A stretch of DNA of 64,000 nucleotides from Clostridia bacterium (lineage in GTDB: Bacteria; Bacillota; Clostridia; Oscillospirales; CAG-272). The position numbers were made by a program, and so were the translations under genes. Below the pieces are notes generated by a model. It was given only the letters and a program-made list of their open reading frames with translations, ran no database searches and was not told where the DNA came from. The DNA is taken from NCBI GenBank assembly GCA_017453285.1, contig JAFTKL010000008.1, positions 14,434 through 78,433 of the forward strand. The letters are read 5' to 3'. This document shows, piece after piece, positions 15,967-45,965 of this stretch. How positions within the stretch are numbered: position 1 is the stretch's first letter; the number at the start of each line of letters is the position of its first letter.

Positions 15967-17817
15967 TTATCTCAATCCTCGCATTGAATTCATGACTGCT
16001 ATAACAAGCACTCCGACGTCGGCAAAGATCGCGAGATCCATTCCCGCCACGCCGATCGCTACGAGCGCAAGGCAAGCGAGCTTTACGCCGATCGAGAACA
16101 CGATGTTCTGCTTTGCTATACGCATACATTTGCGAGAGAGCTTTATAGCATCCGCGACCTTGGAGATATCGTCGTCCATTATGACCACGTCAGCCGCGTC
16201 GGTCGCCGCATCCGAGCCGATACCGCCCATCGCGATACCGACGTCGGCTCTTGCGAGCACGGGCGCGTCGTTGATGCCGTCGCCGACAAAGGCGACCTTG
16301 CCGCCGCTCTCCATCAAGCTTTCAAGCTCTCCGACCTTGTCCTCGGGCAGAAGCGAGGCGCGCACGTCGCAGATGCCGACCTCACGCGCGACCGCCCGTC
16401 CGACGTCCTCGCGGTCGCCCGTGAGCATTACCGTCCGCACGCCGAGCTTTCCGAGCGCGCTGACTGCCGCCGCCGCATTCTCCTTCGGCGCGTCCGCGAG
16501 AGTTATATATCCCGCAAAGACACCGCTGACCGACACGCAAAGCAGAGTCGCGCCGTCGCTCTCTTTTGCTTGGCATCCAACAAGAGCGGGAGTTCCCACT
16601 CTTACCTCGATGCCGTCGACAGTAGCAACTACTCCCCTGCCGCGCTCCTCGCGTATCTCGCTCACTCTCGCGCGGTCGATCTTGCCGCCATAGGCAGAAA
16701 CGATGCTTTTAGCTATCGGGTGAGAGGATGCGTGCTCGGCGTGAGCCGCGTATTCAAGCAAAAGCTCGCGGCTGATCCCGACCGCCTCTACCTCTCTTAG
16801 CACGAATCTGCCGCAGGTCAGCGTACCGGTCTTGTCGGTTGCGACACACTTGAGTGATGCAAGCGTCTCAAGACAGTTCGAGCCCTTGACGAGTATTCCG
16901 CGCTTGCTCGCCCCACCAAGACTTGCGAAAAATCCCATCGGGATGCTGATGACGAGCGCACAAGGACAGCTTATAACGAGAAAGCTGAGTGCGCGGTATA
17001 TCCACTCGCCCACATTCGCGTCTCTGCCTGTAGCAAAAAGCACGAGCGGAGGCAAAAGCGCGAGCAGAAGCGCCGCCGCGCAGACCGCGGGGGTGTATAC
17101 TTTAGCAAATTTTGATATAAACTTCTCGGATTTCGACTTGCGCGAGCTTGCGTTCTCGACAAGGTCGAGAATCCTCGCGACCGCCGACTCGCCGTAGACC
17201 TTTGTCGTGCGGATGCGGAGCGGAGAGGAAAGATTGACCGACGCGCTGAGTATCTCGTCTCCGACATATACGTCGCTCGGCATACTCTCGCCCGTGAGCG
17301 CGGAGCTGTCGATTGCCGACTCGCCGCTCTCTATCACGCCGTCAATGGCAACTCGCTCGCCCGGGTTGACGACTATTATCTCGCCTATCTCTACTTCATC
17401 GGGAGAGAGCTCGTAAAGCTCACCGCCGCGCTCGACACGTGCAAAATCCGGGCGGATATCCATAAGTGCGGAGATGCTTTTGCGGCTCTTTCCGAGCGCG
17501 ATGCTCTGAAAAAGCTCGCCTATCTGGTAAAATAGCATTACCGCCACCGCCTCGGTGTAGTCTCCCCTTCCCCATATCGCGATGGCGAGCGCACCGACCG
17601 TGGCTATCGCCATAAGAAAGTTCTCGTCGAGAAGCTGACCGTGTATCAGTCCGCGCGCCGCCGAGAGCAGAACATCGTAACCTATCACGAGATAGGGCAC
17701 GAGCCAGAGGGCAAGCTCGATGTACCACTTAAGCTCGGGGGCGAGGATAAGCAGGGCGAGCATAAAGACGCCGCTGATGATTATCCGCAGAAGCCGTTTT
17801 TTCTGTTTTCTTGTCAT
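15967..17817 (-). CDS. Heavy-metal translocating P1B-type ATPase, probably Cd/Zn type
   Basis: It shows the CPC motif (SCPCALVIS), DKTGTLT, GDGINDAP and MLTGD. There is no fused N-terminal metal-binding domain; that domain is encoded by the preceding small gene. Confidence 0.92.
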   Translation of the reverse strand: MTRKQKKRLLRIIISGVFMLALLILAPELKWYIELALWLVPYLVIGYDVLLSAARGLIHGQLLDENFLMAIATVGALAIAIWGRGDYTEAVAVMLFYQIGELFQSIALGKSRKSISALMDIRPDFARVERGGELYELSPDEVEIGEIIVVNPGERVAIDGVIESGESAIDSSALTGESMPSDVYVGDEILSASVNLSSPLRIRTTKVYGESAVARILDLVENASSRKSKSEKFISKFAKVYTPAVCAAALLLALLPPLVLFATGRDANVGEWIYRALSFLVISCPCALVISIPMGFFASLGGASKRGILVKGSNCLETLASLKCVATDKTGTLTCGRFVLREVEAVGISRELLLEYAAHAEHASSHPIAKSIVSAYGGKIDRARVSEIREERGRGVVATVDGIEVRVGTPALVGCQAKESDGATLLCVSVSGVFAGYITLADAPKENAAAAVSALGKLGVRTVMLTGDREDVGRAVAREVGICDVRASLLPEDKVGELESLMESGGKVAFVGDGINDAPVLARADVGIAMGGIGSDAATDAADVVIMDDDISKVADAIKLSRKCMRIAKQNIVFSIGVKLACLALVAIGVAGMDLAIFADVGVLVIAVMNSMRGLR

Positions 17818-17819
17818 AC

Positions 17820-18038
17820 TCAGAAATAGATAACGCAGTCGCGCTCGACCTTCTTTGCCGCCTTCTGCGCAGCCTTCATTACCTTCTGCTCGTCAGCACC
17901 GTCGCAAAAATCGACGGTGAGCTTGAGTGCCATAAAGTTCACGCTCGCGTCAAGCACACCCTCAAGCTTTTTGATGCACTCTTCGACCTTGAGCGCGCAG
18001 TTGGGGCAATCCACTTCAATTTTGTATACCTTTTTCAT
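17820..18038 (-). CDS. Stand-alone heavy-metal-associated (HMA) domain protein
   Basis: The 72-aa protein reads KIEVDCPNCALKVEECIKKLEGV, the CxxC pattern seen at the N-terminus of Firmicute CadA-type pumps. Its stop is 2 nt before the ATPase ATG. Confidence 0.8.
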   Translation of the reverse strand: MKKVYKIEVDCPNCALKVEECIKKLEGVLDASVNFMALKLTVDFCDGADEQKVMKAAQKAAKKVERDCVIYF

Positions 18039-18113: not shown

Positions 18114-18174
18114 GGGTAAAAGGAGAAAAAGTTGAATAAACGCGCTGTTTTCTTTGACGCACACACATAAAAAA

Positions 18175-18335
18175 TATATCGAACCTGTAGGGACCGGCGT
18201 CCCCGACGGTCCTAAAACAAAAATATAGATATCTTTTATATCTGTTATCCTTGTTTTGATAATAGACAAATATGCAATTTGTAACCGATACGACATTGGA
18301 CCGCCGAGGACGTCGGTCCCTACAGGTTCGATATA
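18175..18335. mobile_element. 161-bp inverted-repeat element: a REP-doublet or MITE-like non-autonomous element
   Basis: The termini are tatatcgaacctgtagggaccggcgtccccgacggtcc (left) and ggaccgccgaggacgtcggtccctacaggttcgatata (right), about 38-bp imperfect inverted repeats. They enclose an 85-bp AT-rich core. Each end is GTAGGG plus a hairpin, with the GTAG ends facing outward. Confidence 0.75.
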
Positions 18336-18423
18336 GTTTTGTGTTTCGGCAGCAGACGGAAATTCGGCTCTCTACCAATTTTCAACTTTCCACTTTCAAT
18401 TTTCAATTTTTCTCTCTTATCCC

Positions 18424-18482: not shown

Positions 18483-18857
18483 ATGTCGATACATCTTCCG
18501 CACGACCACGGCAACGCCGAGCGCGAGGAGCTGCTCGCTTCTATGTGGAGCCGCGAGAGCTTCGAGACCGTCTCAAGCCTCTTCAAACAGCTCTCGGACA
18601 CAACACGCCTGCGCATTTTCTGGGTGCTCTGTCACTCCGAGGAGTGCGTTATAAATCTCGCCGCTATTATGAATATGAGCTCGCCCGCCGTGTCACATCA
18701 TCTCCGCCTTCTGAAAGAAGCAGGACTCGTCGTCACGCGCAGAGAGGAAAAAGAGGTCTACTACAAGGTCGCAGACACCGAAGAAGCCTCACTTTTGCAC
18801 TCTATGATCGAGCAGCTTGAGCATATAACCTGCCCCGATGAGAAAAAAAGCAACTAA
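18483..18857 (+). CDS. ArsR/SmtB-family metalloregulator (CadC-like)
   Basis: It shows the winged-HTH signature LSDTTRLRIFWVLCHSEECVINLAAIMNMSSPAVSHHLRLLKEAGLV. It is divergent from the ATPase operon. Confidence 0.88.
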   Translation: MSIHLPHDHGNAEREELLASMWSRESFETVSSLFKQLSDTTRLRIFWVLCHSEECVINLAAIMNMSSPAVSHHLRLLKEAGLVVTRREEKEVYYKVADTEEASLLHSMIEQLEHITCPDEKKSN

Positions 18858-19947: not shown

Positions 19948-20103
19948 TGGCTTTATAAATAAGGAACGTTTACATTCCTTCTCATTAGGGTGACAACCAT
20001 TTTGCTGACGTGTGCACTCCTATTTGGATAACGTCTATACCACTAATAACTTTCGGCAGAGATATTGTTTTCTCTGCCGCTTTGTGTTACAATAAAATGG
20101 GTG

Positions 20104-20619
20104 ATGAAAATGGATGAATTGAAAAACCGAAAAACTACTCGATTAAAGGGCGCTGATTATAATCGAAACCAGGTCGTTTTTTTGACGATATGCACCAAGG
20201 AACGACGCTGTATTCTCTCTCGAATTGTAGGGACCGGCGTCCTCGACGGTCCAAAAATCGAATTAACAAAATACGGACAAATTGCAGACAAATACATCAA
20301 ACAATTAAGTAATTTTTATGATGACTTTTCTGTCGAAAGCTATGTGATCATGCCAAATCACATTCATATTATGCTGTGGGTAAAAGGTGCCATAAATGGA
20401 CCGTCGGGGACGCCGGTCCCTACAAAACAAAATTCTATTCCGGCACGGTTCGTGTCAACGTTCAAGAGATTTTGCAATAAAGAATATGGGGAAAATATGT
20501 GGCAATACCGTTCTAACGATCACATCATCCGAAACCGCGAAGACTATGAAGAGCATTTGCGGTATATTTACGAAAATCCGCTACGTTGGTACTACGACGA
20601 ACTATATAAAGAAGAATAA
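20104..20619 (+). CDS. IS200-like Y1 HUH transposase-family protein (REP-associated tyrosine transposase, RAYT-like)
   Basis: The HUH motif is in YVIMPNHIHIML. A C-terminal tyrosine motif is in LRYIYENPLRW. The size is about 171 aa. No IS ends or a partner tnpB gene are present. It carries two REP-like hairpins in frame (see the two repeat features below). Confidence 0.75.
   Translation: MKMDELKNRKTTRLKGADYNRNQVVFLTICTKERRCILSRIVGTGVLDGPKIELTKYGQIADKYIKQLSNFYDDFSVESYVIMPNHIHIMLWVKGAINGPSGTPVPTKQNSIPARFVSTFKRFCNKEYGENMWQYRSNDHIIRNREDYEEHLRYIYENPLRWYYDELYKEE
20227..20252 (+). repeat. GTAGGG-hairpin (REP-like) inside the RAYT-like CDS
   Basis: The sequence is gtagggaccggcgtcctcgacggtcc, which encodes VGTGVLDGP. 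Confidence 0.85.
20398..20423 (-). repeat. GTAGGG-hairpin (REP-like) inside the RAYT-like CDS, inverted
   Basis: The reverse complement is gtagggaccggcgtccccgacggtcc. This is identical 26/26 to the intergenic copy at 18187-18212. It encodes GPSGTPVPT. Confidence 0.85.
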
Positions 20620-20624
20620 CAACG

Positions 20625-20660
20625 ATCCCCGACAGGCACTAAATCTGTCGGGGATTTTAA
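20625..20660 (+). terminator. Intrinsic terminator after the RAYT-like gene
   Basis: A perfect 11-bp stem pairs atccccgacag with ctgtcggggat, followed by TTTAATT. Confidence 0.6.
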
Positions 20661-32596: not shown

Positions 32597-32620
32597 GGGC
32601 GCTTCGTGAAGCGCCCCTAC
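32597..32620 (-). repeat. GTAGGG-hairpin (REP-like), stem class GGGCGCTT
   Basis: The plus strand reads gggcgcttcgtgaagcgcccctac. The minus strand reads GTAG-GGGCGCTT-cacg-AAGCGCCC. Confidence 0.75.
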
Positions 32621-45565: not shown

Positions 45566-45606
45566 TGGGTGCAGACGGATGTTCATTTTGTGACCGAGGT
45601 GACCTC

Positions 45607-45629
45607 GGGAGGATAATATCCTCCCCTAC
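45607..45629 (-). repeat. GTAGGG-hairpin (REP-like), stem class GGGAGGAT
   Basis: The plus strand reads gggaggat-aat-atcctccc-ctac. Confidence 0.8.
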
Positions 45630-45682: not shown

Positions 45683-45705
45683 GTAGGGGAGGCTATTAGC
45701 CTCCC
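45683..45705 (+). repeat. GTAGGG-hairpin (REP-like), stem class GGGAGGCT
   Basis: The sequence is gtag-gggaggct-att-agcctccc. It differs from the 45607 copy by a compensatory stem pair. Confidence 0.8.
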
Positions 45706-45768
45706 GAAAAAAGCAGGATGAATGATATGTTTTCGTATGCAACCAAAATAACAAAATCCCCCCAAAGC

Positions 45769-45886: not shown

Positions 45887-45909
45887 GTAGGGGCGACCTG
45901 CGGTCGCCC
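45887..45909 (+). repeat. GTAGGG-hairpin (REP-like), stem class GGGCGACC
   Basis: The sequence is gtag-gggcgacc-tgc-ggtcgccc. Confidence 0.8.
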
Positions 45910-45942
45910 GCCTTGAAATAAAAGTTACTTTTGTAGTACAAC

Positions 45943-45965
45943 GGGCGACCACAGGTCGCCCCTAC
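45943..45965 (-). repeat. GTAGGG-hairpin (REP-like), stem class GGGCGACC, inverted partner
   Basis: The sequence is gggcgacc-aca-ggtcgccc-ctac. With the 45887 copy it forms a 79-bp doublet with outward-facing GTAG ends. Confidence 0.8.

Follow-up and report, generated by a model that had tools for sequence, protein, structure and literature searches.

The window analysed here is a stretch of 64,000 nucleotides (nt) from a Clostridia bacterium of the Oscillospirales (contig JAFTKL010000008.1). One of its genes resembles the REP-associated tyrosine transposase (RAYT) genes, which were originally defined as genes flanked by inverted repetitive extragenic palindromes (REPs) (Nunvar 2010). The window gene carries two REPs in inverted orientation inside its own open reading frame (ORF). 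An earlier note, made from the letters of the window, had described a RAYT-like gene with a histidine-hydrophobic residue-histidine (HUH) motif, PNHIHIM, a tyrosine motif, YIYENP, and a pair of hairpins that are translated as VGTGVLDGP and GPSGTPVPT, bracket the segment coding for the HUH motif and leave the frame open. All of this was confirmed, including the positions of the hairpins (Table 1) and the integrity of the 171-amino acid (aa) ORF. The gene therefore contains an inverted pair like those of the REP doublets that form hairpins (REPINs), and the spacer of this pair encodes the HUH catalytic strand.

The pattern of this REP, GTAGGGACCGGCGTCC[C/T]CGACGGTCC, is 26 nt long and occurs four times in the window, and it was not found in any of 100 dinucleotide-preserving shuffles. 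Its hairpin sequence is GTAGGGACCGGCGTCCYCGACGGTCC. Folded as single-stranded DNA, each 26-mer forms a GTAG foot followed by 6 base pairs, a G.A mismatch, 2 further base pairs and a tetraloop, with energies of -9.5 to -9.8 kcal/mol (z about -3). The two arms in the gene constitute a 29-nt inverted repeat (97% complementary, 143 nt apart) with the GTAG feet pointing outward, and a 211-nt in-gene stretch folds into one long arm-arm stem (-48 kcal/mol, z -8.9, DNA parameters). In the AlphaFold model, residues 42-50, read from arm 1, occupy a loop between two short strands after beta1, the beta1:alphaA loop. Residues 98-107, at arm 2, occupy a loop with a predicted local distance difference test score (pLDDT) below 50 between the HUH strand (86-93) and the helix 112-128. 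The latter is the beta3:alphaC site described for subclass 2.4 of the tnpA_REP genes in the excerpts of Quentin et al. 2018 (BMC Genomics 19:475, PMC6006769) used here. The model places both arm peptides in variable or disordered surface loops, a location that the earlier note had raised, and because of this location the protein would tolerate the arms in frame. A second copy of the arm-HUH-arm unit, or a second RAYT paralog, was not found in the window, and a solo arm-HUH-arm cassette did not occur in any of the 80 REP-bearing metagenome contigs listed.

The assignment of the protein to the RAYT/TnpA_REP type was supported by sequence, fold and motifs. A profile of 42 homologs compared with the PDB matched best the structure of E. 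coli TnpA_REP, 4ER8 (E 9.2e-14), ahead of IS200/ISDra2 transposases (about 1e-4), and the same structure was ranked first by Foldseek when searched with the AlphaFold model (mean pLDDT 75.9; E 3.5e-6, TM 0.56-0.58). The amino acid sequence, ...ILSRIVGTGVLDGPKIELT...VIMPNHIHIMLWVKGAINGPSGTPVPTKQNS...LRYIYENPLRW..., includes the Y---NP arrangement that is the signature of class 2. Among 42 diverse homologs, down to 37% identity, H86, H88, Y154 and N158 are invariant and P159 is present in at least 90%. The residues W133, Q134, D139, H140 and R143 are also conserved, and in the HMMER alignment to 4ER8 they correspond to W94, Q95, E100, H101 and R104 of the E. coli enzyme, which contact the GTAG tetranucleotide; the replacement of E by D at the equivalent of E100 is found in subclasses 2.5 and 2.7 too (excerpts of PMC6006769, quoting Messing 2012 for the contacts). 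The overall identity to E. coli TnpA_REP is 22%, the score against the NCBIfam equivalog NF047646 (REP_Tyr_transpos) is 51.8 bits, under the cut-off of 80, and the 171-aa protein had no Pfam match at E <= 0.1, Y1_Tnp included. The family is large: a word-indexed search gave 2,783 matches, and at E <= 1e-3 there were 13,858 representatives. Outside the arms, the proportion of nonsynonymous differences (pN) is 0.07-0.18, that of synonymous differences (pS) is saturated at 0.71-0.87, and the ratio of the two rates (dN/dS) does not exceed 0.055, which points to strong purifying selection. Judged by these data, 20104-20619 is a working gene and not a wreck, and its product is a predicted single-strand DNA nuclease-ligase of the kind called subclass 2.4 in the excerpts of Quentin et al. 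The ORF would be 184 aa long if begun at an upstream TTG, and an alternative ATG is present at 20110; many homologs begin at the equivalent of the latter, with MDELK.

To place the arrangement in its family, the DNA of the window gene was compared with that of 80 loci from different GTDB species (81 genes in total). An inverted pair of GTAGGG hairpins is located within the ORF in 64 of them, at nucleotides ~110-125 and ~265-295. The segments are thus not unique to this copy. Nor are they always present, a point that the earlier note had proposed to check: 17 of the 81 genes are without one or both. Among the 64 genes with the pair, arm 1 has 47 distinct sequences. When the common GTAGGG is left aside, the two arms of a gene are 94.6% identical and arms from different loci 43.9%, and all 128 fold better than their own shuffles. 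The register of arm 1 is always GTA-GGG, and arm 2 is read as P-T in 58 genes and as P-L in 6; this fixed register points to one inherited arrangement instead of repeated colonisation. At the protein level, VGTGV[L/P]DGP and GPS[R/G]TPVPT are present in all 120 closest clusters. Representatives at 40-60% identity have both segments at the same two positions with different residues that are exact reverse-complement partners: VGGDVLDAP / GASRTSPPT, VGDGVLDVP / GTSRTPSPT, VGAGVPDGP / GPSRTPAPT and VGAIHESP / RAIRESPL. The covariation of VG..../G...P.PT peptides that the earlier note had mentioned is therefore real and extends to distant homologs. An example of an arm from another lineage is GTAGGGGCGATTCACGAATCGCCC. 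These comparisons indicate that the two-arm arrangement is of ancient origin, with an unchanging position and reading frame.

The lineage-specific hairpins are also found outside the genes. At 19 of the 64 loci the same hairpin type, often identical in sequence, was present within flanks of <= 10 kb (27 copies over 937 kb, roughly half lying less than 1 kb from the gene). Genomes with the gene thus do contain matching hairpins elsewhere, and the absence of such hairpins, which the earlier note had named as a refutation, was not observed. A REP lies 100-1000 nt from the gene at about ten related loci, and at L043 a neighbouring doublet consists of the same two differing arm types that the gene contains. 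Two metagenome-assembled genomes (MAGs) contain two divergent RAYT paralogs each. In JAZNNG01 (L001 and L018) each paralog has its own in-gene hairpin type, which fits the rule, given in the excerpts of Quentin et al. 2018, that each tnpA_REP has its own REP family. In JAZKZH01, L058 has the post-HUH arm only and L079 has none.

The nucleotide changes in the arms showed that they are conserved as hairpins. In the 30 distinct arms of class A, the structural class of the window, all 240 of 240 pair cells contain standard pairs, while slid controls were at most 60% paired. Changes on both sides of the stem occurred at 4 of the 8 pairs and amounted to 39 cells, compared with 9.5 +- 4.8 in shuffles, none of 500 of which reached 39. 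The compensatory changes that the earlier note proposed to look for are thus present. Where the two arms of one gene differ in their stems, the differences are compensatory within each arm (L043, L038, L027, L034, L050, L072, L012, L014, L024 and L026). Divergent arms stay self-complementary: each arm is kept as a hairpin of its own, and the long arm-arm duplex is not. When the window gene was compared with homologs at 52-89% protein identity, the 54 arm nucleotides had 2-13 differences, whereas the rest of the gene differed at 21-44% of nucleotides and 43-63% of third positions. In the comparison with L011, third positions differed at 2 of 18 sites in the arms and 87 of 141 elsewhere (Fisher p = 5.6e-5). 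Within the arms pS was 0.06-0.18, against 0.71-0.87 for the remainder of the gene, so that synonymous sites are 5-10 times more conserved in the arms. Since the peptides vary freely between lineages, the constraint acts on the nucleic acid, and these substitution patterns indicate that the arms are constrained as DNA hairpins and not as peptides. The suggestion that the coding sequence was simply colonised by a REP doublet fits poorly with a position and a frame that are fixed family-wide and with the strong conservation of synonymous sites in the arms.

The arms are genuine dispersed REPs. Metagenomes were scanned with the exact pattern, and copies were then counted at <= 3 mismatches in 80 contigs among the matches listed; 105 of the 112 copies were outside RAYT-like genes and 7 inside. 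Together with the four copies in the window against none in shuffles, this agrees with the earlier view of the hairpins as the presumed cognate REPs of the gene. Adjacent metagenome copies, 50-113 nt apart, almost always form a (+,-) pair with GTAG outward, an orientation shared by the in-gene pair and the window's intergenic element. T stands immediately before GTAG in 82% of the 93 non-identical contexts. A CT is found no more than 4 nt 5' of GTAG in 42 of these 93, compared with 4 of 93 at control positions, and is reminiscent of the CT sites at which characterised TnpA_REP enzymes cleave (PMC8266576). One doublet combines the REP of the window with a subtype, GTAGGGACCGGCCTCCCGGACGGTCC, whose inner stem shows a compensatory change from G-C to C-G; it is present in many contigs with its flanks conserved and constitutes a multi-copy REPIN (L082, L103, L110, L111, L113, L139 and L157). 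The start-to-start spacing of this doublet is 50-54 nt. Sixteen of 104 scored extragenic REP copies (L081-L160) are spanned by stop-free frames of at least 300 aa, and some of these may be in-frame REPs in other genes, as in Di Nocera 2013.

Table 1. Features of the RAYT gene and its surroundings (positions in the 64-kb window)
Feature	Position	Strand	Remarks
RAYT/TnpA_REP-like Y1 HUH gene	20104-20619	+	From the ORF list; 171 aa plus stop, from ATG
REP arm 1	20227-20252	+	GTAG foot and hairpin on coding strand; read VGTGVLDGP (residues 42-50)
Inter-arm segment	20253-20397	+	145 nt, coding; residues 51-98 (helix, strand, HUH strand)
HUH codons H86-I87-H88	20359-20367	+	Within inter-arm segment
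REP arm 2	20398-20423	-	GTAG foot and hairpin on template strand; read GPSGTPVPT (residues 99-107)
Codons W133 Q134 ... D139 H140 ... R143	20500-20532	+	HMMER alignment to 4ER8
Codon of putative catalytic Tyr154	20563-20565	+	In YIYENP; homolog conservation, class signature
Terminator-like stem-loop, not a REP	20624-20656	+	Immediately 3' of gene
Second terminator-like site	20054-20079		5' of gene, ~25 nt before RAYT start
REPIN-like intergenic element	18170-18340		43-nt arms, 91% complementary; REPs 18187-18212 (+) and 18298-18323 (-)

The RAYT gene is a short monocistronic unit bounded by two terminator-like sites, and no sigma-70-like promoter was found in a scan of the + strand immediately upstream (20080-20110). 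Its G+C content is 39.7%, or 35.8% without the arms, whereas the window as a whole has 50.6% and the adjacent genes have 52-58%, which suggests a horizontal origin or an unusual codon usage. The two REP copies nearest to the gene but outside it are 1.8 kb upstream, beyond two other genes, and there are none downstream in the window; REPs flanking the RAYT gene, a feature of the RAYT class, were not found there. These two copies belong to the intergenic element, which has outward GTAG feet and an 85-nt AT-rich spacer and adopts a single long hairpin when folded (-49.7 kcal/mol, z -11.7). The earlier note had recognised that this element shares its hairpins with the gene but had placed it at 18175-18335. 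The sharing was verified, with the left arm identical to in-gene arm 2 and the right one differing from in-gene arm 1 at 2 positions, while the coordinates of the repeat and of its hairpins had to be corrected to those in Table 1. Rfam gave no family at the gathering score for this element, and sub-threshold matches to plant miRNA precursors were read as a generic signal of long hairpins and not as a known RNA. The element occupies a divergent promoter region; on one side lie an HMA-domain gene and a P-type ATPase (15967-18038, -) and on the other a regulator of the ArsR family (18483-18857, +), and it could have an effect on the regulation of this metal-resistance unit.

Three further families of GTAGGG-hairpin REPs are intergenic in the window, at 32597-32620(-), 45605-45629(-), 45683-45706(+), 45887-45910(+) and 45942-45965(-). 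Their stems are GCGCTTCACGAAGCGC, GAGGATATTATCCTC / GAGGCTATTAGCCTC and GCGACCTG[C/T]GGTCGC, the last of which is arranged as a doublet with the GTAG feet outward. All are identical or very similar to arm types found inside RAYT paralogs of other genomes (L044, L043 and L050), and for this reason the source genome probably has further RAYT paralogs beyond the window.

The arms are also sites of instability. Extra in-frame copies of arm units were present in 46 of the 120 closest clusters. The tandem units are of 27 nt (the hairpin without the foot, L001), 33 nt (the whole REP, L004), 60 nt (L010) or 21 nt (half-hairpins, L062); in L062 five of the 21-nt units are found inside the RAYT ORF (1382-1480), where they are read as repeated KGSPLPI. 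In non-RAYT DNA of L152 (1040-1137), three complete REPs follow one another in tandem at 36-nt intervals. HUH-less in-frame derivatives of 111-115 aa, from which the entire inter-arm segment is missing, were found in L201 (153-500), L202 (3001-3336) and L203 (112-447). The arms are collapsed to a single double-foot hairpin, GTAGGGGGCGACGTCCTCGACGCCCCCCCTAC, in L201 and to GTAGGGACCGGCGTCCCTAC in L202 and L203, which are two independent assemblies in which the derivative adjoins genes for alanine racemase, LuxS and PNP. The expansions and collapses may be caused by the enzyme or by replication past the palindrome. Some contigs end or fold back exactly at the in-gene hairpin (L117, 4192-4425; L097, 1096-1314), as assemblies break at the repeat. 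Chimeric database proteins that break at an arm (P0121, P0124, P0125, P0220 and P0241) were not used as cases of enzyme-driven rearrangement because assemblers break or misjoin at 26-nt repeats, as illustrated by the contig-end hairpin at which L117 folds back.

We favor, with somewhat more confidence than doubt, the explanation that the RAYT ORF carries its own pair of REPs and that these are kept as substrates of the encoded enzyme and as a resident seed or master REPIN. The arms would be retained since the enzyme still acts on them, and the enzyme and a copy of its recognition element would be inherited and transferred between genomes as one ORF. Exchange mediated by the enzyme or by the hairpins would keep the ORF, as the resident seed or master copy, in step with the genomic REP population. 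The cost would be instability, in the form of tandem unit expansions and an occasional loss of the inter-arm segment that kills the enzyme. A self-contained unit of enzyme and REPs would be useful on arrival in a new genome, and the low G+C content is compatible with horizontal arrival. Autoregulation and self-mobilisation, which the earlier note had also brought up, may be entertained as ideas.

A bolder form of this explanation, which we advance only tentatively, is that the in-gene pair is a selected cis element that makes the gene a self-contained REPtron (a unit of enzyme and REPs) with a built-in self-limiting switch. If so, recombination or horizontal transfer could not separate enzyme and substrate, a newly arrived RAYT could seed its own REP family, and the master copy would keep the enzyme and the REPs co-evolving. 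The switch is suggested because the arms bracket the HUH strand: excision or collapse between them would leave an in-frame, catalytically dead protein such as those of L201 and L202/L203.

Several points weigh against the retention of the arms as substrates and master copy. The relation between enzyme and substrate is drawn from homology and co-occurrence, and the conservation of the arms could result from homogenisation without benefit. The catalytic motifs are kept in the 17 relatives that are without one or both arms; among them, L074, L068, L051, L058 and L021 have the post-HUH arm only, L067 (Ignavibacteria) has arm 1 and double-foot REPs after the HUH motif, and L023, L042, L065, L079 and L080 have neither arm. 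Because these relatives keep the motifs, the arms are dispensable for the protein and their loss is tolerated. The local score between the spacer of the intergenic REPIN and the inter-arm segment was 11, compared with 12.6 +- 2.1 in shuffles; since the spacer is unlike the inter-arm segment, nothing points directly to a copying of genomic REPINs from the gene. Derivation of the intergenic REPIN from a master copy by internal deletion was rejected, as the similarity is no better than in shuffles. Finally, the genomes compared are mostly MAGs with flanks of <= 10 kb, and the sample is biased to relatives of this protein.

The main rival, possible in our estimation but doubtful, is the interpretation that the excerpts of Quentin et al. 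2018 give for subclass 2.4. According to it the REPs are tolerated passengers of two permissive loops, harmless and without a role, and the likeness of the arms to the genomic REPs would be kept up by conversion or re-insertion now and then. The position of both peptides in variable or disordered loops, the freedom with which they differ among lineages and the relatives that keep all catalytic motifs without one or both arms are in line with it. So are the in-frame REPs known in many unrelated genes (Di Nocera 2013) and the published reading of the subclass 2.4 insertions as a peripheral extension with little impact on activity. Nonetheless, neutral arms should decay, yet the GTAGGG foot is intact and the stems are fully paired in 64 of the 81 genes, while pS outside the arms is 0.71-0.87. 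The fixed position and frame argue against repeated re-insertion, and the homogenisation of tracts of 24-26 nt would most plausibly depend on the encoded enzyme acting at these sites. This rival accounts for the loops and for the arm-less relatives, but not for the lack of decay unless extra homogenisation is added.

A function at the RNA level, in which hairpins in the mRNA or the 29-nt arm-arm duplex limit translation or set mRNA stability, so that a potentially harmful nuclease stays scarce, and the protein possibly binds its own message, is improbable. It would be suited by the strong arm-arm stem of the 211-nt stretch (computed with DNA parameters), by the monocistronic gene between two terminator-like sites and by the effects of REPs on mRNA stability elsewhere (background in Di Nocera 2013). 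However, the diverged arms of L043, L038, L027, L034, L050, L072 and others are self-complementary at the cost of arm-arm complementarity, the invariant GTAG foot serves DNA recognition by TnpA_REP and is not known to have an RNA role, and the GUAG-hairpin polarity exists in the mRNA only at arm 1. An arm-arm RNA duplex as the selected feature was set aside because divergent arms are self-complementary and not mutually complementary. Selection on the peptides, for instance as DNA-contacting loops with the palindromic DNA as a by-product, is very improbable and already conflicts with the data on synonymous sites and covariation. The V-G at the start and the P-T or P-L at the end hardly vary, but they merely translate GTAGGG and CCCTAC, the intervening residues follow the stem as exact reverse-complement partners (T/V, G/P, D/S, A/A), and the second loop is predicted to be disordered. 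A disrupted pseudogene or an assembly artefact at the repeat, which might be suspected from contigs that often break at hairpins (L097, L117) and from database proteins that are chimeric exactly at an arm, is scarcely credible and already refuted for the window gene by its intact ORF with dN/dS <= 0.055 and by the same architecture in the independent genomes of 64 species as well as in thousands of proteins from databases.

To our knowledge, the long-term matching of REPs and their domesticated transposases is an open question, and we know of no dissemination pathway that has been demonstrated. The family described here would be a tractable model, with a short gene, a short defined hairpin, dozens of naturally occurring enzyme and hairpin variants between which specificity could be swapped, and natural alleles with empty sites or expansions. 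In terms of annotation, the G/P/A-rich "low-complexity" loops of thousands of unnamed Clostridia proteins are translated REPs. The interest is tempered by the fact that the core phenomenon is published and that we infer the function.

Among the known systems, the IS200/IS605 elements are similar in that a Y1 HUH enzyme acts on subterminal single-stranded DNA hairpins and the hairpins bracket coding sequence. The window gene differs from them in its Y---NP motif (instead of Y---Q), in being present as one copy in the window, with no identical multi-copy gene, and in having the hairpins inside the ORF; because of the latter, the bracketed unit is not an autonomous element. The in-frame intragenic REPs of Di Nocera et al. 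2013, who also reported REPs overlapping the ends of RAYT ORFs, and the Rickettsia palindromic elements (RPEs) are likewise palindromic repeats accommodated in protein loops with the protein intact. Those insertions are scattered, lineage-restricted and located in unrelated genes, whereas here the host gene encodes the enzyme presumed to recognise the repeats and the sites are conserved family-wide.

The REPIN-RAYT systems of Pseudomonas and Enterobacteria (Bertels and Rainey 2011, 2017, 2023) share with the present one the inverted REP doublets that form one long hairpin and exist in many copies, as well as a low-copy RAYT gene that co-evolves with the REPINs. The copy number here appears low in comparison, about 1 REP per 35-65 kb of flank. 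The properties of a REPIN (inverted pair, short spacer, long hairpin, multi-copy unit) are seen in the intergenic element and in the 52-nt-spaced metagenome doublet. As for the in-gene pair, it has the inverted orientation and forms a folded stem, but the 145-nt spacer encodes protein, and a second copy of the unit was found neither in the window nor in the 80 metagenome contigs listed. A REPIN-like pair with a coding spacer inside the RAYT gene is not part of the description of those systems. The E. coli REPtron (Nunvar 2010; Ton-Hoang 2012; Messing 2012, 4ER8; Corneloup 2021) provides the best match in sequence and fold. Common to both are the conserved residues for GTAG contact, the GTAG foot with an imperfect hairpin interrupted by an internal mismatch, and the CT-rich sequence 5' of GTAG. 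In E. coli, the REPs flank the gene; the window gene has none flanking and two inside, and its product, unlike E. coli TnpA_REP, is without a C-terminal tail domain.

The closest relatives are the genes of subclass 2.4 (Group 4 RAYTs of Bertels). The earlier note had started from the premise that REPs flank RAYT genes and never lie within them. This premise is wrong, as in-frame REP insertions within tnpA_REP of subclass 2.4 are reported in the excerpts of Quentin et al. 2018, and the surprise is smaller than claimed because the core phenomenon, in-frame REPs in a RAYT gene, is already published. Later publications on REPs within RAYT genes were sought in the literature, with Quentin 2018 and Di Nocera 2013 as the only results. 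As far as the excerpted description goes, subclass 2.4 has the motifs NH[IFV]H, WQ and YIxNNP, and its insertions vary in length through short DNA repeats. The window gene shares NH[IFV]H, WQ, the Y---NP arrangement, long REPs with a GTAG foot, a frame-keeping REP in the variable beta3:alphaC loop after the HUH strand and length variation by short repeats. Two of the three motifs fit, the tyrosine motif being YIYENP instead of YIxNNP (E for N). The same excerpts propose that double-foot REPs can be derived by central deletion of an inverted dimer, and L201 is exactly such a product. The hosts named there are Cyanobacteria, Bacteroidetes and "various phyla"; the genes studied here are from Clostridia (Oscillospirales-type gut and rumen MAGs). 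The second arm before the HUH strand, in the beta1:alphaA loop, and the fixed GTAG-outward pair in 64 of 81 genes go beyond the description of subclass 2.4 in those excerpts. Also new with respect to them are the conservation of the pair across Clostridia, the covariation of the arms with each other and with extragenic REPs, the synonymous conservation, the frequent in-frame unit expansions and the HUH-less collapse products. The feature itself is real and well supported; as measured against the excerpted description, the window gene is a member or a sister of this known class, and its arrangement and evolutionary signature extend the published report.

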